Source of the DNA: Oopsacas minuta
Taxonomy: Eukaryota > Animalia > Porifera
Direction of reading: 5' to 3'
Length of the DNA stretch: 64,000 nt
NCBI GenBank assembly: GCA_024704765.1
Contig: JAKMXF010000339.1
Location: 161,555 to 225,554 of the forward strand
Shown: positions 9,974 through 60,339 of the stretch, in pieces
Numbering within the stretch: the first letter of the stretch is position 1
How the letters are laid out: each line of letters opens with the position of its first letter
Program-made: the position numbers and the translations under genes
The notes under the pieces: model-generated
Databases searched by the model: none
Seen by the model: the letters and a program-made list of their open reading frames with translations, nothing else
Told to the model about the DNA's origin: nothing

Positions 9974-11275
9974 CGAGGGGCACTCGAAAAGTTTTGCCGT
10001 TTGATATGAAACCATTAATCTGTCGGATATTTTTCCGCATCCATCTTTTCAGACATATTTTACTAATCTACTTTGAAACTTTCATTCATTTCTTCTACTT
10101 TCATAAATTAGATAATTTTAGTATACAGGGCTTCTAAAATATCTCAATCTAAATCAGATCTCACAAAACGTGATTTTCGAGCAATGATATTGATCTTATT
10201 CAAACTACAGAAGACAAGAGTAGAAATCTATGAATCTTTACAGGAACATTTCCCAGATCTAGCTCCTTCTCAAAGTACAGTTGAACGATGGTACAGGGAA
10301 TTTATTCACAGAAACTTTGTTCTTGAAGATGCCCCTCGTTCAGGAAGACCGAATATTTCACATAATGAAGAAAATGTCAACGATATGCTAGATCTAATTA
10401 CTAAAGATCCTCATATTACGTACGCTCAGTTAGAGTATGAAACCGAGTTATCATCGGGGACAATTAATATCATTTTGCACAAGGAGCTTTGTGTCAGGAA
10501 GTTGTGTGTCCGATGGATCCCCCATTCTTTGAACTTTCAGCAAAAATTATCCCGCATAGACTTTTCAAAATTATGCTCAAAAGGTTTGCTAATGGAAGTT
10601 CAAGAGCTGTTTCTGAGATCCTTACAGGTGATGAGACATGGATATACCATTATGACCCAGAAACAAAGCGAATGTCAAAGGAGTGGGTTGAAGAAGATGC
10701 CCCACCTCCAACCAAAGTGTGGAGGGCTAGACCTGTTGGGAAACAAATGTGGGCGATTTTTTCAGATCTAGTGGGTTTGTCGAAGCTGTTGCTCTCGAGG
10801 ATAGAAAGACTGTTTCTGCCGACTGGTACACTACAGTGTGCCTACCCAAAGTCATCACAGCAATTGAGTCACAGCGGCAGAAGACAGGCATTAGAGGAAT
10901 TCTTCTTCATCATGATAATGCTTCATCGCATACGGCAATCAGAACTCGTGAGTTTTGGAAAATTCTGGACTCAAAAACATTACCTCACCCACCCTACAGT
11001 CCTGATTTAGCCCCTTGCGACTTCTGGTTGTTCCCTAGACTCAAAGATCAATTACGTGGGAGGAGATTTTCGACTAATGAGGAGTTGAGAGGGGCACTTT
11101 TCCAAGCGATCGGAGACATACCCAAAGAAGAGTGGAAAAAATGTTGATAATTGGTTTACCAGAATGAAAAAATGTATAGATTGTCAGGGACAGTATTTTG
11201 AAAAAATGTAATAGTCAATTTTATTATTACTATCTGATATGTCGGTCAACATCAAAACTTTTCGAGTGCCCTTCG
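9974..11275 (+). mobile_element. Full-length (1.3 kb) mariner element with TIRs and TA target duplication
   Basis: Left end ta|cgaggggcactcgaaaagttttg (9972-9996) versus right end caaaacttttcgagtgcccttcg|ta (11253-11277), 1 mismatch. Confidence 0.93.
10139..11211 (+). pseudogene. Mariner (DD34D) transposase with three frameshifts
   Basis: Three overlapping ORFs plus a C-terminal frame give WIPHSL (WVPHEL-like), TGDETW, HHDNASSH, HPPYSPDLAPCDFWLF and NWFTRMKKCIDCQGQYFEKM. Confidence 0.92.
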
Positions 11276-16250: not shown

Positions 16251-16764
16251 ATTAATTATTTTTCTATTGTTTCGTTGGTTAGAAATTGATACAATTTCTC
16301 ATAACTGTGTAAACATAATTGGTTTGGTATATTTGGCCATTTACTATATAAGAAAAGATGGATACATTTGCTTAGGATAATACTAGAGATTATATAATAT
16401 TGTGGGAAAATTGCGAGCGAAGCGAGCCGAAATGTTACAGTCTGCCAATCGAGCCAAAGGGATGACATCTATGCCTCCCCGTTGCCACGTCTCTGGAGTT
16501 GCTTAGTAAAGGGAAGGAATCGCATATGAGAAATCCCTCGTGGGAATAGCCCTAGGAATTCGGTGTTAAAGGAAATCAAATGTATATCTCATTTCAAAAC
16601 TTAAGTGTCTTTATGCATTGCTTGGAGGACTAATTAGGACGGACAGGCCGAATATTTGGCTACAGAGCTAGTTTGCCCTAAAAAATACTTTGACAATTAC
16701 ATACATATGAATGTCAGAGCATAGCAGAATATACTGTATTCTATGTAAATTCATTTAGTTATAT

Positions 16765-17756: not shown

Positions 17757-18944
17757 TAATTATTCTATTTTACAGTATACTTACACTTGTTTATGTTTCC
17801 TTTCTAGAATAACTCATTTGTTACACTTCATTAAAGCTAAACTATTTCCTATAACACTTGGTGAAAAGTTGGCTCCCGCGCCCGTATTATGTATACAGCG
17901 GTTGCCATCAATTTATCTCAAGTTTGACTCTTCTAATGTACTATTTTCGTAACATTCTCATGAGTTATACTTCAAACGCACGACTGAAGATGCTTTAAGG
18001 ATTAACAATGTAATATTGATCTAATATTCCCGTATTTATCACAATGTAATATTTATCTTATTGTGAACTTAGTACAAGTTTAGTAGCCCAGAATATATCC
18101 AATAATTTCATAAACCCATTTTTATCCTAGGTTGAAAGTCTGAGAGGATTAGTACTGATGTTAGAGATGACCACCATGATGGTTTTCCATTTGTTCATTC
18201 TTAGAGCAAAATTTATGAAACAACTAGTACATTCTTCAGAACTATTTCTCCATTCATGACTTGCACGTATTCTGATTTACTATTTAACATCTTAACAGTC
18301 CTCTCAGTTTGAAATTTCTCAACACAACCCTGAATCATCGATTTACAGCGCACATTTTTGATATCGAATCTATGCAACAATTCTTGTTTAATTGCCTTGA
18401 AGGATAACGTTTCAAAAATCACTGAATGCACGAAGACCTCTACAGAATACTCTATTACTTCGAATTTGGATTATGTACCTTATCTTTCAATAGTATTATT
18501 CTTATGTTTGACTGATGGTTTCAAGGTATCCCTGAATGTAGACGGTTCCGTTTTTGGTCCTCTGTTTGATTGATAATATAATGTCATGATTATATTCTAG
18601 ATGAAGCTGTCTCTCGTTTTGTGTTCACTCATACACAGTTTTCATATATCTGGGTTGAATATTTCGAGAAAACTTATTCTTATATATATATTGGCTTACA
18701 TATGAATATGTGTATCTCCTCCAACCTTAATCCCACCATACACAGTCAAATTGTTGCATGAAAACGCAATATAACATTGTTGTGCCGTGTATATTGCCTT
18801 GTCGTATAGAACAAATTTGCATCAAATATTTTGATTTCTCAAATTATATTCAAATTTTCCTTATTAAGATACTTAGAAGGTAGAATTTCATCGTCTCACC
18901 GGTCACTCAAGGATGATCAAATTTTGCTGATATTTGGAAGTACT

Positions 18945-21090
18945 CAGGGGTGTAGTGCTCAAATTTATGGTGGGGGAGCGCTTATACAAGAATATATCCC
19001 GAAAAATTGGTCCAACAAAGTTTTTTGTTTTTTAACGAAACATGTTTGTAATCCACATTATGAGTAATATACACTAAAAATATTCACAAATAATGTTGTC
19101 CTTCTTCTGTGCAAATGTTTTATCTTTCCAACTTCGACACACCGTAGCAGAATTATAATGTCTTACCCATGTTTAGTATATTCTGTGGGATTCCATATTG
19201 ATAAAGGAGGAACATAAATTTGGATGAACATCAACGAGGAAACATGTTTTATTGGTAATCTTCTGTTGCGTTTCTCATCTAAAATGATATTCATCAGGCT
19301 AAGCCGTGCGCTCACATCCCGATAAGCTACAGGAAATAACATCAATACATCTTGAGTCCCAAATCCTCATAGTAATCACATAATGCAGTAATTATCTTAT
19401 TTCAGATAATTAATCCAAACCGGTCACATAAAAGTTTGACTTCTCTTTCTCCATACCCAGGAGTGTGTTCAACAGGGCAACATTCTGGTGATAATACTTC
19501 CAGATTCTTTATTATAGATGAGTCATCTGCCACAGTTTCTTGAATAAACAAGCCTGCATAAACTTGATCAAAGTGCTAAGAAAATTGACTGTATTAATGT
19601 TAATAATAGATGCATTCGGTATGAGAGTTGTTAGATTGAATTATAAATTCCTACTAGCACATTCTGCCTATAGTGATCTCGTGCCTTCATTCTCGATCAA
19701 GTTTTCTAGACGTCGAATTGTTCTGCAAATCATTTTATCACATAAATAATTGTAGTGGTACGATGTTGTAATTCAGAAAGAGCTGATAACTAATAGAGAG
19801 TATCATACATTAGACCCAGATCGACAAGAAATCAGGTGTTCGAATTATTTGCAACATTCCATTTAGTATCGCTCTTTCAGTAGAACTTCTCTCAGGATCT
19901 TAAGATGCAACATCGAAATGTTTACATTGAGATTGGTAATGGACCAGACAGCTTTTACTGTCCGGAAAGAACTGGCAACCCACCTTGTATCAAGCATTCG
20001 TCCAATTTTTGTGGCTTGTTCACAGACAGACGATGAACATTCTCTCAATTCTCTTTGATTCTTTGGTGGGCGTGAATATCAAGTATATAATTTATAAAAT
20101 AATTTGAAGTGATTTGATAAAATTAATCTCTAAATTGCTTCAGATACAGATAACCTAGACGATGGTTTAAGCAGTGCCAGAGAATGATATTTGGATATTT
20201 TATCGTAGATGCTCGCACCAGCAGAAGCAAATCCGTAACCCTCCATACAATTCAGTAGAGTACCTAGGATGGTTGAGGCATCCTGCTTTGCCAGTTCAAT
20301 GAGATCCCACAACATGAATTTCGGATTTTCTAACTTTGAAGTTTCGCACTATTGATAAACTACTAGTGAAGAAATATTTGATAACGTCTTTGATTTATCA
20401 ATAATTAACACAATTTTCCCTTCAATTTCCTGTGTACGGGAACAAATCTTAAGTCTCATTTGGAACTTTATGTAATCAATGATTTCTGTTGCAGAATAGC
20501 GGGAACTAAATCGGGATGATCTGTATACGGTCAATTATTCTTGGCAAGATAGTAAGTTGTTTGAATAATTCGCTTAGTATCCTCTAATTGTAAATGTTTC
20601 AAAATGTCTGTGTGCGTTTTAATACAGGACTTTTCTACATTTAGAATACTTTCTTCTGAAATTGTGTGTGCGTGAGAAGTTTTGTGTCGAACAATTTTGT
20701 TACGTAATGATTTCAATCTTGCTTCTTTTGTATCACCATAATAGTTAACAAGATCTTTAGACAATTCTGTAGTGATATAAACACCTCTTCTCTTATGCAA
20801 GGATAGACAAGACACTTTCTGGCATATTCAACACCCCAGAGTGCCAGCTTTGCAAAGTATACATTGGTAATCCTTTTGTTTACTTTTACACATATCGGCA
20901 GACCAAATATCTGGAATTCTAATCTCGTCAGAATCACTGCAAGAAGAGGCTATCGTAATAATAGCAAGCCCAGTCTCAGTGCTGTGAGAGCTTACTTCAA
21001 TAATATAATCTTCTTCAGATTGTGAATTATCTAGAGTTCTTCGAAGGCGCTTTGTAGGAGGAGATTGATCAAAGTAAATCTAACAGAAAT
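18945..21090 (-). mobile_element. Decayed hAT element, KIAA1586-like transposase
   Basis: Fragments include LDTRWVASSFRTVKAVW, HKTSHAH, LIIDKS.TLSN.S.LVVY and the dimerisation-domain tail SLMNIILDEKRNR...HVSSLMFI..PPLSIWNP. Terminal sequence caggggtgtagtg at 18945. Confidence 0.8.
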
Positions 21091-21454
21091 AGGTAATAGG
21101 AATTTTCCAATTATACAAAGAGAAAGTAGACAAAAATGGTTTCAGTACATTATAAAGAGTCAGCAAGCCATTCTTGCCAAACGATTCTATATTAAATAAT
21201 CGTCTAAAAGCCTCAGTATTGAATTCTAGCTCCTTTTACTACTCTTTTCCACATCCCTGAGTAAGTTGAAAAATAATGAAATAATCTTTTATGGAATTTC
21301 ACATTACTGTATGTGTAAGGGGCCATTAATTATTGAAAGACAATATAGTAAAGCCAATTGCACTGTTGTTATAATGGTCCAGAATATGCTAAATTCCCAC
21401 ACTGTTGATACGATCACATGGCCAAAACAGTGCAGTGCGATATTAAATACTTCA

Positions 21455-21507
21455 AATAGGCAGAAACTAGCATCAAGTTTTGTGCCTGATGCTAGTTTCT
21501 GCCTATT
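21455..21507. other. Perfect 21-bp-stem hairpin upstream of the Rep relic (candidate degenerate RCR origin)
   Basis: aataggcagaaactagcatca-agttttgtgcc-tgatgctagtttctgcctatt. The hairpin is seen directly; the origin role is inference. Confidence 0.6.
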
Positions 21508-21630
21508 GGAATAAACTCTGTCCGAAAATGGTATGATTCATCCGACAGAGTATATATGGTTGTATATTTTTCATTCTTTACAGAAATTCATCAGCTCGGA
21601 CTATAGCTGTCTTATGATACTCTGACTGTC

Positions 21631-22333
21631 TGCAGGAACCTGTCTCCCCTGTCACATCCATCCCGCCATTGACTATACTCAAATGGGCTCGTAGTATGAT
21701 CAGTGGGAAAATCCCCCACCAGTTACAAAATCACAAGAAGAATTCCCCTCGCCGTCCAAACTCCAAAGAAAGCCGATATATAAATATATATATATCAGGG
21801 ACTCGTCGCGGATAATTCTATTTTGATCCCATCTGGGAGCAGCCAGAAAAGTATGAGTTCATATATTCAAAGTCAAAGCCATTCAGCCCAATCCCAAGTG
21901 TTGTATATGTGTGGCTTCACATGACTTGGAAAAACTCCTACAACTCTTCGTGGATTCGGACAATCCTTCTACAAGAAACCTCCTGGAGACAGCTGTTTTG
22001 AAGGGTACTCGTTCGAACGAGTTCATATATTTGATGAGTTCATTGGGCAGTACTAATGGAACAACTGTTCGATCCAAGTCCGCCACTTCACGAAGCTAAG
22101 GGTGGTAATCTCCCTAATGCAGCATCGCACTATATCGTTTTGTCGAACCACTCCCTCGACGTACAGTGACACCAGATCCAGGTGAAAAACCACAGGAACG
22201 GGAGGCATACCGCAGACGTATAACTTCCTCCCATCACTTAAACCCCACTTCTAATTCTCCAGGAACTACTACAGTTATTCGTAACAAGACTACAGAATTT
22301 GTTACTGGTTTTATTTCTAATATTGATAATTGA
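21631..22333 (+). pseudogene. rep: Endogenous CRESS-DNA virus (circovirus-like) Rep relic, copy 1
   Basis: CHI..AIDYTQ..S.YDQWENPP (motif III region), Walker A GFT*LGKT (21913-21936), YKKPPGDSCFEGY, Walker B VHIFDEF (22021-22041), EAKGG, motif C IVLSN (22134-22148), Arg finger EAYRRRIT (22202-22225). Stops and frameshifts are present. Confidence 0.85.
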
Positions 22334-22880
22334 CCTTTAATTACATTTGTATTTTCCCATGAGTTGACATTTCTAATTGTTATGCGAGCAAAGGGAAGCG
22401 AAATTTAACAGTTTGCACATTGTGCCAAGGGGATAACCGGGGGCACGAGATCTTGCCAAGGGGGATATAGCCCACTATACCCCCCGTGGAGACGTCCCTC
22501 GGGTTGACTTAGGAATGAGACGGAATCTTATGGATATCTTGTGGGAAATAGGAACGATTCTCATGTGAGAGATCCCATGCGGGGAAATCCAAAGAATTCC
22601 CATAGAGAATTATGTGCTAATGAGAATCAATAAGTAATTCCAATTTCAAACCTTAAGTGGCTCTATGTATCCCATGGAAGGACAAGTTAGGACTACCATA
22701 TCAAATATGAATATAAGAATAGAGGAATATACTAAATTCATTTAGTTGTATAAATTTGATATCTCTCTGTATAGGTCTCTGTATTGATTTGTATTTATAG
22801 TTAGAGCTCATTACTTATAGTCAAATAGATAAGTTATATTATTTGAATTGTTTCATTATTCTAGTTACAGAACTGAACTA

Positions 22881-23726
22881 ATGGCTACAGCTAATACTTT
22901 AGAGAGAATATTCTCTGTAGACTATAAGAGCAAGATACAACCTATAGTCAGTGTTTGTAATTGGGGAAGGGGATTAGAAGATCTTAATAATCCACAAGGA
23001 GTGACTATTGATAATTCTACAGGCGATATCTATGTAGCAGATTGTCGGAATAATTGTGTGAAAGTATTCGAAAATAATGGTCAGATTATGTTTAAATTTG
23101 GAGATGAGGAAGGAGAGGGAAAGATGTATCATCCAAATGGGTTAGCTATATTTGGAAATAGAATTCTAATTACACATCAAAGCTGCATTCTCAATTATCA
23201 AGTTAATGGGAAATTTACTTCTAGAATTGGGAAGCCTGGGAAAGGAGAATTGGAATTTTATGATCCTAGTGGTCTGACATTTGATGAATCTAACGGAGAG
23301 GTATACATATGTGATTATAATAATCATCGTATTCAGATACTGTCCAAAGAACTTACCTACAAGACACAGTTTGGACAAGATAACCTCAAATCTCCTCTTG
23401 ATGTTAAGCTTACAAAAGAATTCATTTATATTCTTGATCTATCTAATCCTTGTCTTCATCTGTACGGCTATAATCTTATTCTAAATAAAAGTTTGATATC
23501 CAGAGGATATGGATTACAGCTGATGTATCCATATTACTTCTATATCGACAATTCGAACAATACTCTTATTACAGATTATTATTTTAACTCTATTTCAATT
23601 TTCAACTCTCAATTTGAATTGATACACAAGATTTCTATTGCTTATCCTTCTGGTATTACAGTAGATAACAAAGGAAGAGTTATTGTAGTCTGTAGAGGCA
23701 AGCAAACTCATCTCGATATATTTTGA
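22881..23726 (+). CDS. Short NHL-repeat beta-propeller protein, paralog 4 (281 aa from ATG)
   Basis: Intact single-exon ORF with repeated PxGx(T/A)xD...xYxxD..NxRIQ NHL blades. Confidence 0.88.
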   Translation: MATANTLERIFSVDYKSKIQPIVSVCNWGRGLEDLNNPQGVTIDNSTGDIYVADCRNNCVKVFENNGQIMFKFGDEEGEGKMYHPNGLAIFGNRILITHQSCILNYQVNGKFTSRIGKPGKGELEFYDPSGLTFDESNGEVYICDYNNHRIQILSKELTYKTQFGQDNLKSPLDVKLTKEFIYILDLSNPCLHLYGYNLILNKSLISRGYGLQLMYPYYFYIDNSNNTLITDYYFNSISIFNSQFELIHKISIAYPSGITVDNKGRVIVVCRGKQTHLDIF

Positions 23727-25999
23727 TAATTTTTCTATTTTACAGTATACTTACAGTTGTTTATGTTTTCTTTTTTGGAATAACTCATTTGTTACATTTG
23801 TACAAATTATACTCTTCCCATATTATATATTATATTTCTGATTTTGCTATTAACTTCAAATTGCTAATCTAAAACCGCGATACGATATTCCCCATAATTC
23901 AGATAAGCAAAAACCACGTAAGAGCTCCATTGTTACCACAGAGGGCCGTTAAATGAAATTTGGAATGACCATGGATATTAACAAATTCACAAAAATTTAC
24001 CTCAAGGCACGTAGTACTAAGTATGTCCAGTCGCTTAGATACCCAAAAGCACTGACAAATGTAGTTGTTTCATACATTTGTTAAAATATGGGGAAATTTC
24101 GGGTATACTTCTGCCCTAGCAAGCGAAGCACGCTAGTATCCAATTATAACCCAATAATTTTTGAAATTCTTATCAAATCAGTATAACCAATTTGTAGTAA
24201 ATACCCGATTTCCTATACCCCCGGAATAATATCACTATTTGCATTAATTGCATAGTTCTGTTGCCCTATTAAGCGGAGTATATTGTATAATCACACAACT
24301 GACAAATGGTACGTATTTTACCACATATTTCTCTGTTTATAAATCAGATGACGTCATCTCGACCCGACATAAGTTTGATCATTTAGCTAGTATTTAATAT
24401 TCATTATCATTAATACATCTATTCGAGTCAAAATGTACCAATTATAACTTTTAGAGATTAATAGAATTGGTTACCAAATACAGAGCATTAACGCTCCTCA
24501 ATTGTTGGAGCCAGAGTTGGAATCGGGTCCACATTTCAGAACCCAACCGACACAAACCCGAAGTGTAAATAGGTGTAGATATTAACTGAATTCCCTCTAA
24601 AATATATGTTTTGTTGACATTTTAACTAATACGAGCATTTTGGCTCGTCGCTTCGCAATGAACTCGGCACATTCTGCCCTCTAGATATCCATTATTCTCC
24701 AAATTGACGGCCCCTTTGAGTAACATAATATAGAATATAGATACATTTAGAACAATACAATTCATGAATATACGAATATTGCATGTATATTATTGGATTA
24801 TTTTGTAAGATCAAACCTCTTTTGCAGCCATTGAGACAAGTATCTACGTAAAATTTTGAAATTTTGCTAGTTTGTTTACTTTATATTGATAAAAACAACA
24901 ATAAATTTACATATGATTAATCCAAAAGTGTGAAAATCGCAATCAGCATGTTCAATATATTTAGTGAAGTTTCATTGAATTCTATTTACTTACTTGATAA
25001 ACACGATAAATACATAGTTATGTGACAATGTCGAAATTGGATGCCGTAAATCCTTTCCTTAACAACAGACAAACAACAATAGAGATTTAATTATATTGAT
25101 TAGACAAACAATAATATAATTCCAAAATAGAATTCAATCATTGAATTTCTAAATTACGCACAAAATTCGAATTGATCAACTTCGACTCCGATTCTAAATC
25201 ACAATCTGAACCAGAACCCGATTCAAACTCTGGTTGGAGTGCGCTCCCATCTCCGCTCCTTACTCAGAAAAGGAGCGGACTCGACTCGAACCCGCTTAAG
25301 TCAAAATGGACCGTGCTCCAATTCATTCTTTCAGATTTACATTAGATTTGCATTTGAAGTAATTAGGAATTAATTTAACAATTGTAGATTCAGGAAATTG
25401 CTAATTGTGTAAACTCAAACCATTTTAATAAATTGTAGATTATACAAAAGTGTCTTATCATCATATTTGTATAGCAAAAATACTAAAGTTAATACAGAAT
25501 AACGATAAAATTTGTAAATTGTTTGCAATTGAATAGAAGCGCTTCACTTTCCTCTCCTGAATCATAAATCAAGCGTGTTACTGTAATGCCCTGTGTGCAA
25601 TAAATGCAGCAAAAATACTATACAAAAAAGGTAATATTAGGTCAAAGTTGAATTGTTAATCCTTAAAGTATCTCCAGTAGTAATTTGGGGCGTTTGTGGG
25701 TCCTACTTCTATCCTGGAAACGTTTTATAAGAAATACATTAACTTTAATGATAAGCGTCCTCATCACATTTCCTTTTTTTTGGCAAAACAACACAGTGCA
25801 TCTCCCTAAAGGAGAGTAACGTGAATCGCAAGGTAGAAATTGAAGGATAGTCCGGGCTTATGGCTTATTGGCATCCTCTGAAGTCTAAACAAAGAGGAAT
25901 AATACAAAATATGAAATAGTACAATTTGTTCAAATACAACAACTGATAATTCTAAAGGGAACATGAATGATTGAATGATTATTAGTAAAATGGAAATTA

Positions 26000-26854
26000 T
26001 CAATACATATTGAGATTACCTCCATAACAAACTACAATAACTCTTCCTCTGTTATCTACTGTAATACCGGTAGGATAATCTATGGGGATCTTGTGTATCA
26101 AATCAAATTGAGAGTTGTATATTGAAATAGAGCCAGATGAAATGATATCAGAAGAATCTGTAATAAGAATATTGTTAGAATTATCAATATAGAAGTAATA
26201 TGGATAAATCAGCTGTAATATATCTCTTCCAGAAATAATACTCTTATGAGGAATATGAGTATAGTTGTATAGATGAAGACAAGGAATAGATCGATCTAGA
26301 ATATAAATGAATTCTTTTGTAAGTTTAACATCAAGAGGGTATTTGAGGTTGTCTTGTCCAAACTGTGTCTTGTAGGTAAGTTCCTTGGACAGTATCTGAA
26401 TACGATTATTATGACAATCACATATGTATACCTCTCCGTTAGCCTCATCAAATGTCAGACCACGAGGATATTGAAATTCCAACTCTCCTTTCCCCAGTTT
26501 CCCTATTCTAGATCTAAACTTTCCATTCACTTGATAATTTAGAATACAATGGTTAGTTTGAGTAACTAGAATTCTATCTCTACATATAGCTAACCCAACT
26601 GGACGATCCATCTTCCCTTCTCCTTCCTCATCTCCAAATTTAAACATAATCTTACAATTACAATCGAATACTTTCACACAATGATTCCCCCAATCTGTTA
26701 CATAGATATCTCCTATAGAATTATCAATAGTTACTCCAATTGGGTTATCAAGATTTTCTAGCCCCCTTCCCCTTTTCCACACACTGACTATAGGTTGTAT
26801 CTTGCTCTTATTGTCTACAGAGAATATTCTCTCTAAAGTATTAGCTGTTGCCAT
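26000..26854 (-). CDS. Short NHL-repeat protein, paralog 5
   Basis: Intact ORF starting MATANTLERIFSVDNKSKIQ, with NHL blades. Confidence 0.88.
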   Translation of the reverse strand: MATANTLERIFSVDNKSKIQPIVSVWKRGRGLENLDNPIGVTIDNSIGDIYVTDWGNHCVKVFDCNCKIMFKFGDEEGEGKMDRPVGLAICRDRILVTQTNHCILNYQVNGKFRSRIGKLGKGELEFQYPRGLTFDEANGEVYICDCHNNRIQILSKELTYKTQFGQDNLKYPLDVKLTKEFIYILDRSIPCLHLYNYTHIPHKSIISGRDILQLIYPYYFYIDNSNNILITDSSDIISSGSISIYNSQFDLIHKIPIDYPTGITVDNRGRVIVVCYGGNLNMY

Positions 26855-27397
26855 TAGTTCAGTTCTGTAAATAGAATAATGAAACAATTCAAATAATATA
26901 ACTTATCTATTTGACTATAAGTAATGAGCTCTAACTCTAAATACAAATCAATACAGAGACCTATACAGAGAGATATCAAATTTATATTATTTAATGAATT
27001 TAAATACAATACAATATATTCCTCTATTCTTATATTAATATTTGATATAGTAGTTCTCACTTGTCTTCCCATGCGATACATAGAGCCACTTAAGTTTTGA
27101 AATGTGAATTTCCTTGATTCTCATTAATGCAGGATACTCTATGAGAATTTCTTTAGGATTTCTCACATGGGAATCGTTCCTATTTCCCACAAGATATCCA
27201 TAAACTTCCTTCTCATTCCCAAGTCAATCCGAGGGACGTCTACACGGGGGGCATGGTGGGCTATACCACCCCCTGGCAAGATCCCGTGCTCCATGTCATC
27301 CCTTGGCTCAATACGCAAAGTGGAAAATTTCGCATCCCTTTGCTTGCATAACAGTTAGAAGTGCCAACTCATGGGAATATACAAATGTAACAGAAGG

Positions 27398-28093
27398 TCA
27401 ATTATCAATATTTGAAATATAACTAATATCTAATTCTGTAATCTTGTTACGAATAACTGGAGTAGTTTCTGGAGAGTTAGAAGTGGGGTTAAAGTGATGG
27501 AGGAAGTTATACGTCTGCGTAGGCCTCCCATTCCTGTTTTTTCTTCCTTGATCTGGTGTCACTGTAGGTCGAGGGTGCGGTTCGACAAAACGATATAATA
27601 CGATGCTGCATTAGGGAGATTAGAACCCTTAACTTCGAGAAGTCGGGGACTTGGATCGCAACAGGAGTGCCATTGATGTATTGGTACTACTACGTGAATT
27701 CATCAAATATATGAACACGTTCGAACGAGTACCCTTCCAAACGGTGCTCTCTAGGATGTTTCTTGTGGAGGGATTGCCGAATCCACGCAGAGTTGTAGCA
27801 GTTCTTCCAAGTCATGTTGGGCCACACATATACAACCCTTGTGCTTGGGCTGCATGGCTTTGAGTTTGAATATATGAACTCGTGCTCTTCGAGCTGCTCC
27901 CAGATTAGATCAAATGAGAATGCTCGGTCGACAAGTCGCTGGTATATATTACACTTTCTTTGGAGTTTGGACGATGGGGGAGATCCTCTTGGGATTTGGT
28001 AACTCGTGGGGGATTTCCCCACTGGTCATACGACGAGCCCATTTGAGTATAGTCAATGGCTGCATCGATATGACATGGGAGACAGGTTCCTGC
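27398..28093 (-). pseudogene. rep: Endogenous CRESS Rep relic, copy 2
   Basis: Minus strand reads CHIDAAIDYTQMGSSYDQWGNPP, GPT*LGRT, EGYSFERVHIFDEF, CDPSPRLLEVKG and YIVLSN...LRRRITSS. Confidence 0.85.
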
Positions 28094-34352: not shown

Positions 34353-34879
34353 AAGGAGCATCCCCTTTTAGTCTCATCTCGGGGCAGCCCGAAGAATACG
34401 AGTTCATACATTCAAACTCAAAGCCATGCATCCCAATTCCAAGTGTTGTATATGTGTGGCTCCACATGGCTTGGAAAAACTACTACAACTTTGCGCGGAT
34501 TCGGACAATCCTTCTACCAGAAACCTCCTGGAGACCGCTGTTTTGAAGGGTACTCGTTCGAACGAGTTCTTATAAGTGATGAGTTCATTGAGCAATACTA
34601 ATGGAACGCCTGTTGTGATCCAAGTCCCCCACTTCTCGAAGCTAAGGGTACTAATCTCCCAAATGCAGTATCGCACTTCATCGTTTTGTCAAACTGCTCC
34701 CTCGACGTACATGACACCAGATCGAGGAAGAAAAACCACTGGAATGGGAGGCATACTGCAGACGTATAACTTCCTCCCATCACTTGAACCCCACTTCTAA
34801 CTCTCCAGAAGCTACTACAGTTATTCGTAGCAAGATTACTGAATTAGTTATTAGTATTATTTCTAATATTGGTAATTGA
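34353..34879 (+). pseudogene. rep: Endogenous CRESS Rep relic, copy 3 (helicase half, best-preserved frame)
   Basis: One frame from Walker A to motif C with a single TAA (34599-34601): VLYMCGSTWLGKT...FYQKPPGDRCFEGYSFERVLISDEFIEQY*WNACCDPSPPLLEAKGTNLPNAVSHFIVLSN. Confidence 0.88.
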
Positions 34880-35333: not shown

Positions 35334-37500
35334 TGTTGCGTGAGATTTTAACTCATTAATATTATTGGACCAGGGACGGTCTTTCATCGATAGATTTAAC
35401 TCATCTATATTCAACGAGTGTGAATTTGCAGGATATTCGACCAGGATCATTTCAATCACTAATTTGTCCTACTTGTACTCATCAGATTTACCCGAAATTA
35501 ATATCATTCAGTAGAGGAGTGTTGGACGTTTTATAAAATATAATTTTCTTAAATATTTCTAACTTTTATCTATTTATTGTTGTCATGACGAGTAGGGTCG
35601 CTTCTCTATTAAAAATGACGACCTAAAAGTGAGAATTCAAATCTGAAATTTTGTGTCTATATTTGTGAGCCATGAACGTTTATGGAAAAATATTTTCATC
35701 CAAAGGTACCTGAAACTCAAGATAGAAGTATTCAAAGTAGAACTCAGAGTTATATTGGAGGGGGTGAGTATCATTTTACAAAATGTACTATCAGTTCAAA
35801 TTGATATCTGATATCCCGAATCAAACTCAAATTATTATATTTTGACGACAATCGATAGCTGAGACATAGCTGAGACGTGGATGTATACCATTATGTCGTT
35901 ATAATCATGAAATTCTTTCCCTGCCAACGTATTAGCAGATAAGATGTAGAATTATTTTTGATCTCACTTTGGCAATGTATTTGATGCCCAGGAACAGAAA
36001 GGGGAATATTTGGTAACATATCTTTGTTAATACTTAGATTAGAACATCCTATAGAATTCAGATGGCTCTGTGCGTATTTGTAACAAAACTACTAAATACA
36101 ATTTTATTTTATTTTTTGATGGATTAATATAACTTAATTTGCTCTTTTTCCTTTTGGACCACTCCTCCCTACAAATCTTCCTCATTCTCCACAACAATTT
36201 TTCGGATTTTTGTTTAAATGCTTCACGTGCTAATGTTATAAAAGCAAATTTGAATGTAATAATTCTGTCATCGATATTAACGTATTTCGACCTTTTCGTA
36301 ATTCAAAATATTATGTTTTACTATCCTAAACCAATTCTACACTAGCGTTACTATCTCTTACAGTATTGTCTTTGTCACTACATACTCTAAATAAAATATT
36401 TCAGAAATAATGAAGTATGATTCAATAAAGATAAGGTAAATATATGATTATTTGTCAATTTTGTATACTTCATTGAGATGGATAAAAATAGAAAATGTAA
36501 ATCATAACTTCAGTATTTTGCAGTTTCATTATTCGCTTGTTGTAGCAACATTAGAATGGGGACCAAGAGAAGAGTTATGACATGTGTTACTTCATGCATA
36601 ATAACAGTCATGCTCGATAGTCTTATGAAATAATCTAGTAATGTCTAGACAATGTGAATAATGATGAGGCTAGCGGAAAACATATTTTCATAAAATATTA
36701 TTTTTGTAATATTCATTAGAAAAGTACTAGTGACCCCTGTTTATTTTAAAGAAAATAAATGATATAATATAAAAGAAGGAGCTTGTGAAGTTTCAGGCGA
36801 TTCTGGGTTAGAACTATTTTTGAAATTTGAGTCTAAACTGAAAATTCGAAAATACACAAAAAACGACAATTATGTCATTTTTAGAACCCCATTGTGACTA
36901 TCTTTCAGAATTTCATGATTATAACGACATAATGGTATACATCCCCGTCTCAGCTATGTCTCAGCTATGTCTCAGCTATCGATTGTCATCAAAATATAAT
37001 AATTTGAGTTTGATTCGGGATATCAGATATCAATTTGAACTGATAGTACATTTTGTAAAATGATACTCACCCCCTCCAATATAACTCTGAGTTCTACTTT
37101 GAATACTTCTATCTTGAGTTTCAGGTACCTTTGGATGAAAATATTTTTTCATAAACGTTCATGGCTCACAAATATAGACACAAAATTTCAGATTTGAATT
37201 CTCACTTTTAGGTCGTCATTTTTAATAGAGAAGCGACCCTACTCGTCATGACAACAATAAATAGATAAAAGTTAGAAATATTTAAGAAAATTATATTTTA
37301 TAAAACGTCCAACACTCCTCTACTGAATGATATTAATTTCGGGTAAATCTGATGAGTACAAGTAGGACAAATTAGTGATTGAAATGATCCTGGTCGAATA
37401 TCCTGCAAATTCACACTCGTTGAATATAGATGAGTTAAACCTATCGATGAAAGACCGTCCCTGGTCCAATAATATTAATGAGTTAAAATCTCACGTAACA
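35334..37500. mobile_element. Non-autonomous long-TIR (foldback-like) element, 2167 bp, TGTT...AACA termini, no TSD
   Basis: TIRs are 35334-35916 and 36907-37500 (near-identical; the right one has one extra 11-bp gtctcagctat unit). It is inserted between ggtc|tctgtattg of the NHL leader. The ~1-kb core has no credible ORF. Confidence 0.9.
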
Positions 37501-37603
37501 TCTGTATTGATTTGTATTTATAGTTAGAGCTCATTACTTATAGTCAAATAGATAAGTTATATTATTTGAATTGTTTCATTATTCTATTTACAGAACTGAA
37601 CTA

Positions 37604-38452
37604 ATGGCTACAGCTAATACTTTAGAGAGAATATTCTCTGTAGACTATAAGAGCAAGATACAACCTATAGTCAGTGTTTGTATGTCTGGAAAGAGGCTAG
37701 AAAATCTTAATAGACCACAAGGAGCGACTATTGATAATTCCACAGAAGACATCTATGTAGCAGATTGTCGGAATGATTGTGTGAAAGTATTCGATTGTAA
37801 TGGTCAGATTATGTTTAAATTTGGAGATGAGGAAGGAGAAGGAAAGATGAATAGTCCAGATGGGTTAGCTATATGTAGAGATAGAATTCTTATTTCACAA
37901 GCTAACGACTGTATTCTGAATTATCAACTGAATGGGAAGTTTATTTCTAGAATAGGGAAACCTGGGAAAGGAGAATTGGAATTTACTGATCCTCTTGGGC
38001 TGACATTCGATGAATCTAACGGAGAGGTATACATATGTGATTTTACTAATAATCGTATTCAGATACTGTCCAAAGAACTTACCTACAGGACACAGTTTGG
38101 ACAAGATCACCTCAACTGCCCTCTTGATGTTAAACTTACAAAAGAATTCATTTATATTCTTGATCGATCTAATCCTTGTCTTCATCTCTACGACTATAAT
38201 CTTATTGTATATAAGAGTATTATTTCTAGAGGAGATGGATTAGAGCAGAAAAATCCCGATTTCTTCTGTATTGACAATTCTAACAATATTCTTGTTACAG
38301 ATTTTACTTCTCGCTATATTTTTATTTTCAACTCTCAATTTTATTTAATCCACAAGATATTTATAGATTATTCTACCGGTATTGCAGTAGATAACAGAGG
38401 AAGAGTTATTATAGTTTGTGATGGAGGTGAACACTGCCTCAATATATTTTGA
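37604..38452 (+). CDS. Short NHL-repeat protein, paralog 7 (leader interrupted by the long-TIR element)
   Basis: Intact ORF. Confidence 0.85.
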   Translation: MATANTLERIFSVDYKSKIQPIVSVCMSGKRLENLNRPQGATIDNSTEDIYVADCRNDCVKVFDCNGQIMFKFGDEEGEGKMNSPDGLAICRDRILISQANDCILNYQLNGKFISRIGKPGKGELEFTDPLGLTFDESNGEVYICDFTNNRIQILSKELTYRTQFGQDHLNCPLDVKLTKEFIYILDRSNPCLHLYDYNLIVYKSIISRGDGLEQKNPDFFCIDNSNNILVTDFTSRYIFIFNSQFYLIHKIFIDYSTGIAVDNRGRVIIVCDGGEHCLNIF

Positions 38453-39319: not shown

Positions 39320-40500
39320 AAATTAAGGGAGAGCGGTCTCTAGCATGAATATACGAATATGCCCCTGAAGTGTAGTGTCCTATAGGGATAGGTTCTCTAT
39401 GCTGTCGCATATTGAATACGTGAAATACTCGGAATTTTGCTAGCTTTGATTTGAGTAAATGAGAGGTGAGTTTATGAATTAAAGAAGAATGAGGTTTACC
39501 AGTCATTTCACCAAAAGGCATGGACTTAATTAATGGGTATTCTTCGAATTAAAATCTTTAGATTCACTGAGAAAGACAGCTGCTTTTGAGACACAAATCA
39601 ACTTCCATTTCATAATATCTCTAGTTGTTCTCATTGCAAGACCATGTGTGTAGGAAATCTCTATAGAGTTTGTACCAATATATTCGCCGATTTCAATATT
39701 TTACTTGCGCTCTGCCTTACTAGCCAATTCTCTGAAGTCCAATCTACCCTTAGTATTTCCTAATATGTTCAATTCTTTCTGAAGTCTGGAAGAGATTTTG
39801 GAATTATTTGTTATGATATTTTGTAGTATTCACAGGTCTTTTCGTGATCTCCTAACCCTGATCATGAAGCAGCCATTCTAAATTGAATTTTGCCAGCAGT
39901 GGTGTCAAGTTTCACGGCAGTCTCTGCATCTGAGAGAGATCTTTCAAAATGTTCCAACTGGATATAGCATTGAGCTCGATTGCTCCAATAGACATGATTG
40001 ACCTTGCCTATATCAATTGAGAGGGTATAGCAACTGATTGCCCTTTCATAGCTCTCTGTTTTGTAGTATTCGTTTCCTTCCTTCTTGCAATCATCCTCAG
40101 ATATTAATGGATATAATCTTGTTTCTAAAATCACAATAACTTCATCTGGAGATTCTTGTCGAATATATATATATAAGGATCTATCAGAATCTAGGCATAA
40201 TTCGACTATAATTGTTATATCGTGACCTCGAATGTTGACTAAAGTTCATTGCATCTAGGATTCTTTCTTCCTGGCTTTGGCTAAATGTTTTATAATTATC
40301 ATGATAATTCCATGTAATACGAAGGTAAATCTCATCTGTATGCTTCGCTCTCTAAACTTTGGCTGATCTTGGACGAAACAAAACCTACATGTTTCAGTAT
40401 TTTTCCTAGTCTAATATTTCTTTTGGGATAAAACGAAGAGCGGGATCACCTAAACTTTTTCCATAACTTTGATTTAGAATCAAAGTGGCCACCAACAATT
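39320..40500 (-). pseudogene. TPR + SET-domain protein pseudogene
   Basis: IRQESPDEVIVIL, then TPR helices (KKEGNEYYKTESYERAISCYT...YWSNRAQCYIQLEHFERSLSDAETAVKLD...S*SGLGDHEK). After a frameshift comes EYIG..IEISYTHGLAMRTTRDIMKWKLICVSKA, like the SET N-terminal GxGLxATRDIxxG motif. Multiple stops. Confidence 0.6.
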
Positions 40501-47045: not shown

Positions 47046-47891
47046 TCAAAATATATCGAGATGAGTTTGCTTGCCTCTACAGACTACAATAACTCTTCCT
47101 TTGTTATCTACTGTAATACCAGAAGGATAAGCAATAGAAATCTTGTGTATCAATTCAAATTGAGAGTTGAAAATTGAAATAGAGTTAAAATAATAATCTG
47201 TAATAAGAGTATTGTTCGAATTGTCGATATAGAAGTAATATGGATACATCAGCTGTAATCCATATCCTCTGGATATCAAACTTTTATTTAGAATAAGATT
47301 ATAGCCGTACAGATGAAGACAAGGATTAGATAGATCAAGAATATAAATGAATTCTTTTGTAAGCTTAACATCAAGAGGAGATTTGAGGTTATCTTGTCCA
47401 AACTGTGTCTTGTAGGTAAGTTCTTTGGACAGTATCTGAATACGATGATTATTATAATCACATATGTATACCTCTCCGTTAGATTCATCAAATGTCAGAC
47501 CACTAGGATCATAAAATTCCAATTCTCCTTTCCCAGGCTTCCCAATTCTAGAAGTAAATTTCCCATTAACTTGATAATTGAGAATGCAGCTTTGATGTGT
47601 AATTAGAATTCTATTTCCAAATATAGCTAACCCATTTGGATGATACATCTTTCCCTCTCCTTCCTCATCTCCAAATTTAAACATAATCTGACCATTATTT
47701 TCGAATACTTTCACACAATTATTCCGACAATCTGCTACATAGATATCGCCTGTAGAATTATCAATAGTCACTCCTTGTGGATTATTAAGATCTTCTAATC
47801 CCCTTCCCCAATTACAAACACTGACTATAGGTTGTATCTTGCTCTTATAGTCTACAGAGAATATTCTCTCTAAAGTATTAGCTGTAGCCAT
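47046..47891 (-). CDS. Short NHL-repeat protein, paralog 10 (identical protein to paralog 4)
   Basis: Intact ORF, inverted copy of 22881-23726. Confidence 0.88.
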   Translation of the reverse strand: MATANTLERIFSVDYKSKIQPIVSVCNWGRGLEDLNNPQGVTIDNSTGDIYVADCRNNCVKVFENNGQIMFKFGDEEGEGKMYHPNGLAIFGNRILITHQSCILNYQVNGKFTSRIGKPGKGELEFYDPSGLTFDESNGEVYICDYNNHRIQILSKELTYKTQFGQDNLKSPLDVKLTKEFIYILDLSNPCLHLYGYNLILNKSLISRGYGLQLMYPYYFYIDNSNNTLITDYYFNSISIFNSQFELIHKISIAYPSGITVDNKGRVIVVCRGKQTHLDIF

Positions 47892-48438
47892 TAGTTCAGT
47901 TCTGTAACTAGAATAATGAAACAATTCAAATAATATAACTTATCTATTTGACTATAAGTAATGAGCTCTAACTATAAATACAAATCAATACAGAGACCTA
48001 TACAGAGAGATATCAAATTTATACAACTAAATGAATTTAGTATATTCCTCTATTCTTATATTCATATTTGATATGGTAGTCCTAACTTGTCCTTCCATGG
48101 GATACATAGAGCCACTTAAGGTTTGAAATTGGAATTACTTATTGATTCTCATTAGCACATAATTCTCTATGGGAATTCTTTGGATTTCCCCGCATGGGAT
48201 CTCTCACATGAGAATCGTTCCTATTTCCCACAAGATATCCATAAGATTCCGTCTCATTCCTAAGTCAACCCGAGGGACGTCTCCACGGGGGGTATAGTGG
48301 GCTATATCCCCCTTGGCAAGATCTCGTGCCCCCGGTTATCCCCTTGGCACAATGTGCAAACTGTTAAATTTCGCTTCCCTTTGCTCGCATAACAATTAGA
48401 AATGTCAACTCATGGGAAAATACAAATGTAATTAAAGG

Positions 48439-49141
48439 TCAATTATCAATATTAGAAATAAAACCAGTAACAAATTCTGTAGTCTTGTTACGAATAACTG
48501 TAGTAGTTCCTGGAGAATTAGAAGTGGGGTTTAAGTGATGGGAGGAAGTTATACGTCTGCGGTATGCCTCCCGTTCCTGTGGTTTTTCACCTGGATCTGG
48601 TGTCACTGTACGTCGAGGGAGTGGTTCGACAAAACGATATAGTGCGATGCTGCATTAGGGAGATTACCACCCTTAGCTTCGTGAAGTGGCGGACTTGGAT
48701 CGAACAGTTGTTCCATTAGTACTGCCCAATGAACTCATCAAATATATGAACTCGTTCGAACGAGTACCCTTCAAAACAGCTGTCTCCAGGAGGTTTCTTG
48801 TAGAAGGATTGTCCGAATCCACGAAGAGTTGTAGGAGTTTTTCCAAGTCATGTGAAGCCACACATATACAACACTTGGGATTGGGCTGAATGGCTTTGAC
48901 TTTGAATATATGAACTCATACTTTTCTGGCTGCTCCCAGATGAGATCAAAATAGAATTATCCGCGACGAGTCCCTGATATATATATATTTATATATCGGC
49001 TTTCTTTGGAGTTTGGACGGCGAGGGGAATTCTTCTTGTGATTTTGTAACTGGTGGGGGATTTTCCCACTGATCATACTACGAGCCCATTTGAGTATAGT
49101 CAATGGCGGGATGGATGTGACAGGGGAGACAGGTTCCTGCA
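48439..49141 (-). pseudogene. rep: Endogenous CRESS Rep relic, copy 4 (mirror of copy 1)
   Basis: Near-identical reverse complement of 21631-22333. Confidence 0.85.
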
Positions 49142-54399: not shown

Positions 54400-55569
54400 T
54401 TAATATATATTTATTTCACAATCATCAAAACTAGCACAAATAATATCGAAGTTATTATTAACAACTATTCCTCTAGGATAAATACATTTAATTTTGTGTA
54501 TCAGCTGTCCATCTTTAGTAAATATTTTAATTGAATTTCTAAAATAATCGCTAATTATAATATTATTATACAAATCACAACACAGAAAAATATATTCTCC
54601 AACTCCAGTTTCTAATTTTATTATACTTTTCAACAAATCACCTGATTTAGAGAATATGTGTATATTATTAATCTTATTACTGTCTGCAACAAATATCTTA
54701 TTATTATATATTTTGACGTCATGCGGGAATATGAGTTTGTCTTTTCCTATTTCTCTAATATAGTATAAATCAGAGCTGAATACTGCAATTCTATTATTTT
54801 CAGAATCTGCAACTAACACTTCTCCATTTGTGTCAGTTGTTAGACCAAGAGGGAAACTAACATCTCCCTTAACACTCTTAATTAATTCGTAATTTGTTTT
54901 AGAGAATGTATATATAGTATCAAGTATCCTATCACTTATAAACACCCGTTCCTTATTTAATGCTATACCGTGTGGATACTTTAGCTCCCACAAATCAAAT
55001 TCATGAATGAACTTACCCTCTGTAGAGAAGATCAGTATTCTAGTATTGTCTCCATCTGCTATATAGATCTTTTCTCCATCTAGAGCTAGTCCACTAGGAA
55101 TATACCGCTCTCCTTTCTTTCTGCTCTGACCCCCAATCTTTCTGATGGGCTTTGTCTTGTTTCTGTATAGTACAGCTATATCCTGAAAAGACCCCAACTT
55201 CTCCAGCTGTTTTAGTAGAGAGTCTAGACCCTCAGTATTGAGGGAAGGGAATGGGATAGGTGTTTCATTTTCGTATTTCTGTATTTCAGCTCTTGTTTGC
55301 CTCATCTGTTCTTCTTGAAACTTTCCTACTTCGTTCTGCTGAATGCTAGTTTCCATTAATTGTTGGATGAGCTTCTCCAGGTCTGCTACTTGTTTCTTTC
55401 TCGTATTCTCCTTGTTCAGATAGTCCTGCTTGATATCGAACAGCTGAACAAGCAGCTGATCTCTCCTCTCTGTTACAATCCTAATTATCTTCTCGAAGGT
55501 GGAATAGATCAGTTGTTCCGTTAGTTCGAAATGGTTTGTAGGATTTTCATCTGTGTATTGGGTGGCCAT
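54400..55569 (-). CDS. Coiled-coil + NHL-repeat protein (TRIM-NHL-like, no RING/B-box), 389 aa
   Basis: Intact single-exon ORF. It has an N-terminal heptad-rich helix (ERRDQLLVQL...LEKLIQQL) followed by NHL blades (PSGLALDGEKIYIAD, YPHGIAL, FPLGLTTD, FPHDVKI, YPRGIVV). Confidence 0.9.
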   Translation of the reverse strand: MATQYTDENPTNHFELTEQLIYSTFEKIIRIVTERRDQLLVQLFDIKQDYLNKENTRKKQVADLEKLIQQLMETSIQQNEVGKFQEEQMRQTRAEIQKYENETPIPFPSLNTEGLDSLLKQLEKLGSFQDIAVLYRNKTKPIRKIGGQSRKKGERYIPSGLALDGEKIYIADGDNTRILIFSTEGKFIHEFDLWELKYPHGIALNKERVFISDRILDTIYTFSKTNYELIKSVKGDVSFPLGLTTDTNGEVLVADSENNRIAVFSSDLYYIREIGKDKLIFPHDVKIYNNKIFVADSNKINNIHIFSKSGDLLKSIIKLETGVGEYIFLCCDLYNNIIISDYFRNSIKIFTKDGQLIHKIKCIYPRGIVVNNNFDIICASFDDCEINIY

Positions 55570-55767
55570 TTGTTTGTTGTTCTGTTTATGATCAGTCTCA
55601 TTTACAGACTGTATTTATACAAGTTTGTAGGTTAATTATTGAGATAGAAAGTTACAACTAATCACATTTCCTTAAACTCTACCACGAGACTATTATCTCA
55701 CAGAATTACGGATGTGTTAGGTCAGATAGCTTTCAACATGAAAATTAGTTCCAGTTATAACTACCCA

Positions 55768-56173: not shown

Positions 56174-56736
56174 ACTACACACATTCCTTGTATAGAATTA
56201 GTTGCTATGCTATATTAGCTATCAATTTCAATTCGTGATCCTAATCATTTCTTGTATATTCCTCCCTGAAATTTAGCCGTTAAGAATATGAAAATATTGA
56301 GTTTTTGATAATTCATACGTTATACAATATTTTACATTGTCAAAGGTGTCAAAATATGATTAATCACAATATATGCAATTATAATTAGAGAATAGTTCTA
56401 TGCAATATTTCTATTTTAGAAATACAAACTGCTAAAGGCAGAATAATTCGTATTGAAAGAGACTTTCTCATGGAAATATAGTCAAATACCTCTTGTCTTA
56501 ATGTTATACAAATACCTTTCTGAGTAATTAAGGTTTGTCTAGGTGGTCTGAATACCTTTTATCTTTATGCTAATCTGGCGCCTAAACAATCCAAGAGACA
56601 GTGATCAATATCAGTGAGGTTATATAACTTTCCTGAGAGATTATTCATATCTTAAGTGATAATATTTAAGCTAGGGCGTCATTATTTCCGTCTTTTTCTC
56701 ATTAATTGATTTATCTATAATTTACATACACCATAC

Positions 56737-57124
56737 ATGAGTATAGAATTTACATACATGAATATAGAATTTACATACATGAATATAGAATTTACATACA
56801 TGAGTATAGAATTTACATACATGAATATAGAATTTACATACATGAGTATAGAATTTACATACATGAGTATAGAATTTACATACATGAGTATAGAATTTAC
56901 ATACATGAATATAGAATTTACATACATGAGTATAGAATTTACATACATGAGTATAGAATTTACACACATGAGTATAGAATTTGCACACATGAATATAGAA
57001 TTTACATACATGAGTATAGAATTTACATACATGAGTATAGAATTTACATACATGAGTATAGAATTTACATACATGAGTATAGAATTTACATACATGAGTA
57101 TAGAATTTACATACATGAGTATAG
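56737..57124. repeat. 21-bp minisatellite (atgagtatagaatttacatac), ~18.5 units, truncated by an N at 57125
   Basis: Direct head-to-tail repeats with few variants (agt/aat, cac/tac). They generate spurious 7-aa repeat ORFs. Confidence 0.95.
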
Positions 57125-59597: not shown

Positions 59598-60151
59598 GTC
59601 TACATGATGAAAACTTGAGGCAACTTCTTCAAGAGCTTCAACCCCAGCAGCGTCTTGTAAACATTTTATTTGATGAGGTGAAGCTAACAGAAACTCTTAG
59701 GTACTCTGGTGGTCATGTTGTTGGTTATGCTCAAAATAGATCTGGTGACGCTGAAGTTCTCGCAACACATGCTTTAGTGATCGAGGTTGTATGCCATTTT
59801 GGTGGCCCTAAATATATTCTACGTATTCATCCTGTCGCGAAACTCAATTCAGATCAACTCAAGGGTATATTACTCGAAGCTCTCGCAGCAGTTAGCAATG
59901 CTGGTGGCACTACAATTTCTTGTATATGTGACAATTGCAATACAAATGTCTCAGTCTATGCTAAATTAGGTGGAGCTGGTAGAGTGTTTATAGACATCTT
60001 AAACTCTCACGCTTTTCTCGTTTATGACTATGTCCATTTATTCAAAAACATTAGGAATAACTGGATAACTGTGCCTCATAAGGAACTCGCATTCACAAAA
60101 GATGGTAAATCACACATAGCACGTTGGAAAGACATAGAAGCACTTTACATT

Positions 60152-60339
60152 NNNNNNNNNNNNNNNNNNNNNNNNNNNNNNNNNNNNNNNNNNNNNNNNN
60201 NNNNNNNNNNNNNNNNNNNNNNNNNNNNNNNNNNNNNNNNNNNNNNNNNNNNNNNNNNNNNNNNNNNNNNNNNNNNNNNNNNNNNNNNNNNNNNNNNNNN
60301 NNNNNNNNNNNNNNNNNNNNNNNNNNNNNNNNNNNNNNN
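60152..60339. other. Assembly gap (run of N)
   Basis: Seen directly. Confidence 0.99.

Follow-up and report, generated by a model that had tools for sequence, protein, structure and literature searches.

A decayed CRESS-type Rep gene fragment, probably integrated once, in an NHL-repeat gene array of a likely glass sponge

Rep fragments and their surroundings

The window, that is, the whole stretch of 64,000 nucleotides analysed, is AT-rich (30–39% GC) and carries an array of NHL-repeat open reading frames (ORFs) and transposon relics. About ten related NHL-repeat ORFs lie on both strands within positions 3189–47939 and 54400–55614, together with a 404-aa NHL ORF. Where compared, they are 85–89% identical to the NHL gene beside the first Rep copy, and the nearest named relatives of one of the encoded proteins are TRIM71/NHL-like proteins of O. 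minuta (up to 79%), which makes a glass sponge, this species or one related to it, the likely host. The Rep copies and the features around them are as follows.

21631..22333, + strand: copy 1, decayed Rep fragment with motif III, linker, SF3 helicase and C-terminus
27398..28093, − strand: copy 2, same extent as copy 1 and 87% identical to it
34353..34879, + strand: copy 3, shorter at the 5ʹ end, without motif III
48439..49141, − strand: copy 4, 99.9% identical to copy 1
18945..21262, − strand: decayed transposase-like element upstream of copy 1, parts of which also precede copies 2 and 3
21455..21507: hairpin with a perfect 21-bp stem (z = −8.7), about 120 nt upstream of copy 1, without the viral nonanucleotide
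22380..22733, + strand: GC-rich host repeat downstream of the copy 1 Rep
22833..23726, + strand: NHL-repeat ORF downstream of copy 1 (PF01436, E 2e-28), a host gene family
26000..26902, − strand: NHL-repeat ORF downstream of copy 2
37556..38452, + strand: NHL-repeat ORF of the copy 3 block
47046..47939, − strand: NHL-repeat ORF downstream of copy 4
35334..37500: 2.2 kb insertion with 550-bp terminal inverted repeats (99%), parting copy 3 from its NHL gene
18207..24911: 6.7 kb block with an inverted counterpart at 52569–45858, the pair holding copies 1 and 4

Elsewhere, the window contains a frameshifted Tc1/mariner-type transposase (10112–11147, +; HTH_48 and DDE_3 matches), a TPR-repeat exon or ORF (39862–40245, −), and a transposase-like RNase H N-terminal domain (59567–60352, +; PF21787, E 1.5e-14) that runs into an N gap (60152–60339). 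A 556-aa open frame (57553–59223, −), with no convincing Pfam match (ELO only, E 0.025), is adjoined by a 21-bp tandem array (56732–57124) that ends at an N.

The first-pass annotation had placed four Rep copies at these positions and on these strands, with one order of motifs, and this was borne out by a six-frame scan and by profile scores of 50–110 bits. In the motif scan, the motif III region CHI..AIDYTQ was found at 21650 (+), 28075 (−), and 49122 (−), and Walker A at 21913, 27823, 34458, and 48859. EGYSFERV, DPSP, ExKG, IVLSN, and RRITSS follow 3ʹ of Walker A in each copy, and the order of Walker A, Walker B, motif C, and arginine finger is that of an SF3 helicase. Upon scoring the window with a profile of ten intact relatives from the databases, we obtained 110, 67, 50, and 50 bits for copies 3, 2, 4, and 1, respectively. 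Outside the copies, the same profile scored no higher than 4.2 bits in the rest of the window, and all 20 of the 20 locally shuffled windows stayed at or below 12.3 bits; the copies are therefore not chance matches.

None of the four copies retains an intact ORF, just as the earlier reading had stated, and stops and frame changes occur in every one. The lesions were counted against P0126, an intact relative of 379 aa. Copy 1 has four in-frame stops and at least three frame changes (four P0126-matched segments in three frames), copy 2 has three stops and at least two frame changes (two segments counted), and copy 3 keeps the helicase core in a single frame with one stop, with two frame changes among its three matched segments. 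Using tblastn, P0126 residues 132–374 were matched on copies 1 and 4, residues 132–333 on copy 2, whose C-terminus was reached by other relatives, and residues 181–374 on copy 3. Copies 1, 2, and 4 thus begin at about residue 132 and copy 3 at about residue 181. The motif III that had been read in the copies is present in copies 1, 2, and 4, with the tyrosine kept, but it is without the conserved lysine of the relatives and is absent from copy 3. The HUH nuclease motifs I and II were absent across the window in a profile search (best score 8.5 bits, at unrelated places). As both motifs are present in the intact relatives, their absence from the copies was read as truncation, and none of the copies, all lacking motifs I and II, could yield a working Rep.

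No capsid gene was detected by Pfam in the six frames of 21263–21640 and 22300–22740, a search that a divergent, decayed capsid could escape. PMC4498126 describes the nonanucleotide NANTATTAC in a stem-loop as a feature of CRESS-DNA virus genomes. The nonanucleotide core has 22 matches in the window compared to 20.9 expected, and no match lies within 600 nt of any copy.

Flanks of the copies

The same order is found at every copy: transposase-like remnant, spacer (lost in copy 3), Rep, host repeat, and NHL gene. In copy 3, a piece of the remnant is joined directly to Rep, and the inserted 35334–37500 element gave no Pfam match in six frames. The 18945–21262 element, which may be hAT/KIAA1586-like judging by its motifs and its short CAGGG-type ends, also gave no Pfam match, and Rep lies outside its putative ends. 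Within this element, contigs from all four public runs that contain the region skip about 2.05 kb (19118–21170), as in internally deleted non-autonomous copies. The hairpin upstream of copy 1 is partly decayed at copy 2 and occurs within the window only beside Rep copies; contigs of run X3 have loose ends at it.

The 350 nt of GC-rich sequence downstream of Rep were considered as viral intergenic DNA and rejected. This repeat, at 71–76% identity, also lies upstream of NHL genes without a Rep fragment (near 16412 and 41777), which marks it as not viral, and the hairpin it contains, at z −1.75 to 0.15, is not significant. As the GC-rich stretch after the Rep stop codon is a host repeat, the viral part is confined to about 700 nt, 21631–22333 in copy 1.

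The two 6.7 kb blocks are 99.5% identical, with 34 differences, and copies 1 and 4 are 99.9% identical over their 703 nt. Since this inverted block ends at an assembly N (52570, its outer end), the copies were counted as three distinct ones; the four loci claimed at first are present, but not as four independent sequences. Copy 4 is either a recent inverted duplicate or an uncollapsed haplotype of the copy 1 block. That it is an assembly artefact, with the second haplotype left uncollapsed and scaffolded in reverse, has a real but minor chance: in its favour, the identity across 6.7 kb stops exactly at the N, but there is no N at the other block end (45858), and inverted similarity of 90–93% continues beyond it (24902–27104 vs 45188–43241), which fits a real, repeatedly rearranged array.

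Identity of the fragment

As the search query, we used the copy 3 helicase in its single frame, with the stop read as X. Among four listed PDB matches, the two significant ones were the Rep entries 8XMS and 7LAR of porcine circovirus 2 (PCV2; E 3e-5 and 8e-5). HMMER against 1.84 billion proteins gave 37 matches at E ≤ 0.001, the best of which was P0126 (E 9.8e-26, 59% identity over the helicase). When 24 of the 37 were scanned for domains, RNA_helicase was found in 23 and Viral_Rep in 15 (E ≤ 0.01); eight of these 15 passed the Viral_Rep cut-off, with the closest relatives below it (16.7–24.9 bits vs 26). On the copies themselves, the Pfam check proposed earlier did match RNA_helicase (PF00910), and nothing else, in two of five pieces, but under the cut-off (E 0.012 and 0.004). 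A word-index search for the copy 3 helicase among longer proteins was negative (0 of 47 candidates).

In P0126, motifs I, II, and III precede the helicase. Its structural model has a mean pLDDT of 68, with the N-terminal 50 residues under 50. Against BFVD, the model matched CRESS Reps first (E 1e-22, 16–25% identity). Against PDB, Vientovirus FB Rep, PCV2 Rep, and the nuclease domains of nanoviruses and circoviruses ranked above picornavirus 2C, and the nuclease and helicase domains taken separately both matched CRESS Reps first. The three best clusters in the ESM Atlas were Cressdnaviricota Reps (0.97–0.98). Together, the PDB, HMMER/Pfam, and P0126 fold matches identify the donor as a CRESS-type Rep, in agreement with the initial proposal.

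A helicase from a picorna-like 2C protein, a parvovirus NS1, or a cellular AAA+ protein has next to no chance of being the source. The sole Pfam match on the copies, PF00910, is shared with 2C proteins, and 2C structures do turn up lower in the fold search. However, an HUH nuclease with motifs I–III stands ahead of the helicase in the intact relatives, copy 2 aligned to the motif III region of these relatives (probability 94.6), and the HMMER, domain, fold, and ESM Atlas matches already contradict a non-CRESS origin.

An unclassified lineage of intact relatives

In a profile search, 18 proteins were found at E ≤ 1e-15 among 7995 candidates: 12 ENA proteins (E ≤ 7e-60), then the O. minuta protein LOD99_6441 (P0127), and then five proteins at 25–28% identity. 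The 12 ENA Reps are 52–64% identical to the copies over the helicase and colinear with them from motif III to the C-terminus; P0126, P0177, P0176, P0163, P0129, P0131, P0178, P0180, and P0181 belong to this clade. The intact relatives are 374–417 aa long, with a long N-terminal extension of low confidence. All 12 are encoded on contigs of 8.3–20.7 kb. Near-identical Reps, some of them frameshifted, occur in sets of two or three on contigs of equal length, with five such cases recorded. From the two to three Rep copies per contig, we infer that these contigs are concatemers of small circles in long-read data; large viral genomes of 8–21 kb were set aside, as several of the contigs carry two or three Rep copies.

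Further Reps were also recorded. For the P0133 cluster, five Rep copies are given on contigs of 8,253 bp, and for the P0143 cluster six on contigs of 12,408 bp, consistent with concatemers built from circles of about 2 kb. The related Reps P0140, P0141, P0144, P0149, P0146, and P0136 lie on ENA contigs of 28–523 kb and probably represent additional endogenous elements, belonging to sister lineages; P0140, P0146, and P0149 carry both domains. Scans of IMG/VR with P0001 or P0126 gave no match, and scans by alignment returned five loci with each (24–32%), distant Reps only. A JGI scan covering 12 of the 64 parts of the collection returned five loci, again distant Reps, at 28–30% over long stretches or 41–48% over 33–40 residues.

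A helicase tree was built from 42 rows and 128 columns, with nine ENA Reps, no named family, and a bootstrap that had not settled. Near-duplicate, frameshifted, and short matches (P0128, P0130, P0132, P0134, P0151, P0154, P0156, P0164, P0179, and other cluster members) were left out. Copy 3 and P0127 formed a group (97/89), which was sister to P0126 plus P0177 (91/87, under the threshold of the tool). The placement in a Rep phylogeny that had been suggested as a check therefore came out in part: the copies fell inside a 14-row group with the nine ENA Reps and three long-branch rows, but with support under the tool's threshold (88/93), and as no named family is in the tree, no family was assigned. 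The label "circovirus-like" fared similarly. PCV2 Rep is indeed the best solved-structure match, but membership of the circoviruses was not shown: the nearest kin form an unclassified clade, and an identity of about 30% to PCV2 argues against Circoviridae on sequence grounds. The donor likely belonged to this unclassified Rep lineage, whose intact members are found on concatemer-like long-read contigs.

Integration, junctions, and copying

Host genes flank the Rep fragment on either side, which places it within host DNA. Over 3.86 kb, the block of copy 1 matches that of copy 2 at 83% identity. Among the distinct copies, identity is 86–89% for Rep, compared to 86% for the spacer, 86–88% for the downstream repeat, and 87–88% for the NHL ORFs. 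The shared flanks and a Rep divergence equal to that of its neighbours point to one old integration followed by segmental duplication, which supports what the first-pass annotation had supposed about the history of the locus. Differences in Rep at codon positions 1, 2, and 3 were 17/142, 19/141, and 19/142 in one pair, 10/113, 13/113, and 11/112 in another, and 18/112, 15/112, and 18/111 in the third. This even spread (Fisher p 0.75–1.0) is as expected if Rep was dead when copied, though the test has low power: in the NHL control, a third-position excess appeared in one of two pairs (p 0.011 and 0.39).

Between copies, identity is higher in the transposon-like flank than in Rep (91% vs 87% for copies 1 and 2; 97% vs 89% for copies 1 and 3), so a single clean block duplication is insufficient and later conversion or recombination is needed. 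No empty pre-insertion site was found within the window. Together with the low power of the codon test and the additional joints in public contigs described below, these points allow for conversion after the duplication and, with less likelihood, for a flanking element having mobilised the fragment.

P0127, a decayed annotated O. minuta ORF on a separate 386 kb contig, starts where copies 1 and 2 start and has an off-frame stretch in common with them (68% over 62 aa). The same start and the same off-frame stretch indicate descent from the same decayed element.

The four public runs that contain the region derive from a single sample and were possibly themselves used for the assembly, so they do not give independent support; no RNA dataset containing the region was present among the runs listed. 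The junctions between Rep and host DNA, proposed at the outset as a check, were recovered in part. The 5ʹ junction of copy 1/4 was bridged with 0–1 differences by listed contigs of X2, X3, and X4, that is, in three of the four runs, but all from the one sample, and the 3ʹ junction was bridged by one listed X4 contig, in another copy. Public contigs also contain joints absent from the window, from 22845 to 21636 and from 22845 to 21821 (each in two of four runs), so the Rep fragment also has other 5ʹ neighbours. Five to ten variant contigs per run cover the Rep sites, which hints at more copies elsewhere. In run X3, the depth over Rep relative to the flank was above that in the other runs; all variants checked were found in several runs, and depth gives no copy number.

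We consider it improbable that a mobile element, be it the GC-rich repeat, the hairpin, or the hAT-like remnant, carried Rep along as cargo, or that Rep came from a capsid-less Rep-based rolling-circle element, rather than that segmental duplication alone was at work. The public joints that put the 5ʹ edge of Rep (21636, 21821) after another sequence would suit such spread, as would the variant contigs, the perfect hairpin upstream of Rep, and the lack of a visible capsid gene. Helitrons and Replitrons are known types of Rep-based transposon. Their hallmark, discrete shared ends with unrelated flanks, was not seen among the window copies, which share flanks beyond Rep on both sides, the NHL gene included. 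Nor is Rep enclosed by the putative ends of the hAT-like element, and every copy is without motifs I and II. As a precedent for cargo, PMC3198968 describes a terminal-inverted-repeat transposon of truffle that carries a geminivirus-like Rep.

Retention of the fragment for a host function, as a source of antiviral small RNAs or as a regulatory element of the NHL genes, is very improbable. Its position 0.4–0.5 kb upstream of an NHL gene in each block would be compatible with regulation, but Rep diverges as fast as the non-coding flanks and evenly over codon positions, and other NHL copies in the window have no Rep fragment. Most likely, the Rep fragment does nothing now.

Discussion

We read the locus, with a probability of roughly 0.8, as a broken piece of the Rep gene from a CRESS-DNA virus, in three distinct copies and a near-identical duplicate, which likely stem from one germ-line integration in a likely glass sponge and were then likely copied passively. 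A circular ssDNA virus would have replicated in sponge nuclei, and part of its Rep gene would have been captured into the germ line upstream of an NHL-repeat gene, presumably by end-joining repair or Rep-mediated nicking, as general knowledge of such elements suggests. The fragment may have been dead already at capture or soon after. Unequal recombination and inversion, while expanding the NHL gene array, would then have multiplied it. The apparently inert fragment thereby marks duplication events in that array.

The sponge as the true host of the virus is itself inferred. Sponges filter and phagocytose microbes, and the integration could be real while the donor virus infected a symbiont or a food organism such as a protist, with the viral DNA entering the filter-feeding sponge by uptake; in that case the fossil would be no host marker. 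The ENA contigs with intact relatives have no stated origin, and the sister lineages lie on ENA contigs of 74–523 kb, both of which are compatible with such a source. We nevertheless regard this, the main rival reading, as unlikely, since germ-line integration needs access to sponge nuclei, the site of CRESS replication (PMC3198968), and a Circoviridae-affiliated contig, perhaps of the present clade, is reported from O. minuta data (PMC10280926).

The Rep fossil connects a likely glass sponge with a compact unclassified clade that has intact members (52–64% helicase identity), and the host assignment becomes directly testable. Few kinds of evidence for the host of a virus are better than a fossil in the germ line, and sponges are likely the host of this unclassified, sequence-only lineage. 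Tentatively, and at somewhat short of even odds, we suggest that the fossil marks a lineage of ssDNA viruses that would be the first to be linked with glass sponges: an undescribed, family-level CRESS clade with long Reps (374–417 aa), whose intact members circulate as small circles caught as long-read concatemers and are possibly capsid-less nuclear replicons of sponges.

The literature searched, which missed most subscription papers, contained no account of a CRESS Rep integrated in a sponge genome. Zhao, Lavington and Duffy in 2021 reportedly made a broad survey of endogenous CRESS Reps, which may include sponges. A Rep fossil in a sponge would extend CRESS fossils to Porifera; what is new here is this host phylum, together with the connection to an unclassified lineage of which intact members exist.

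Comparison with known systems

PCV2 Rep (7LAR, 8XMS), the best solved-structure sequence match for the copy 3 helicase, has the same motif order and arginine finger, and its ATPase domain superposes on the P0126 model at 2.6 Å. Its identity to P0126 is about 30% in the ATPase domain and 22–24% in the nuclease domain. PCV2 Rep has 314 aa compared to 374–417 aa in the relatives, and neither a capsid gene nor the nonanucleotide was found at the copies. Over the full length, the top fold matches of P0126 were Vientovirus FB Rep (PDB 9PQQ), which we take to belong to the family Redondoviridae, and unclassified CRESS Reps of BFVD; at 16–25% identity, this is a likeness of fold and no family link. 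The ENA Reps are intact with motifs I–III, unlike the window copies.

Two sponge-associated cases are described in earlier studies. Santini et al. (2023, PMC10280926) reported the Circoviridae-affiliated contig of O. minuta, which is likewise circular ssDNA virus-like and associated with a glass sponge, but is a separate viral contig and not integrated, unlike the window copies. Rosario et al. (PMC4498126) reported one sponge-associated circular genome.

Rep fossils in invertebrates are well documented in PMC3198968 and PMC6069186, the main texts of which hold no mention of a sponge. Liu et al. (2011, PMC3198968) listed 302 Rep hits in 35 species, Trichoplax and Hydra included, and described segmental duplication following one integration, and Dennis et al. 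(2018, PMC6069186) listed 93 invertebrate sequences, all the new ones from rep. As described there, these endogenous Reps are, like the window copies, Rep-only, truncated, and decayed, and they too occur in multiple copies with common flanks ascribed to duplication after one integration. The present copies differ from the known invertebrate cases in their likely hexactinellid sponge host and in the unclassified clade of their donor.
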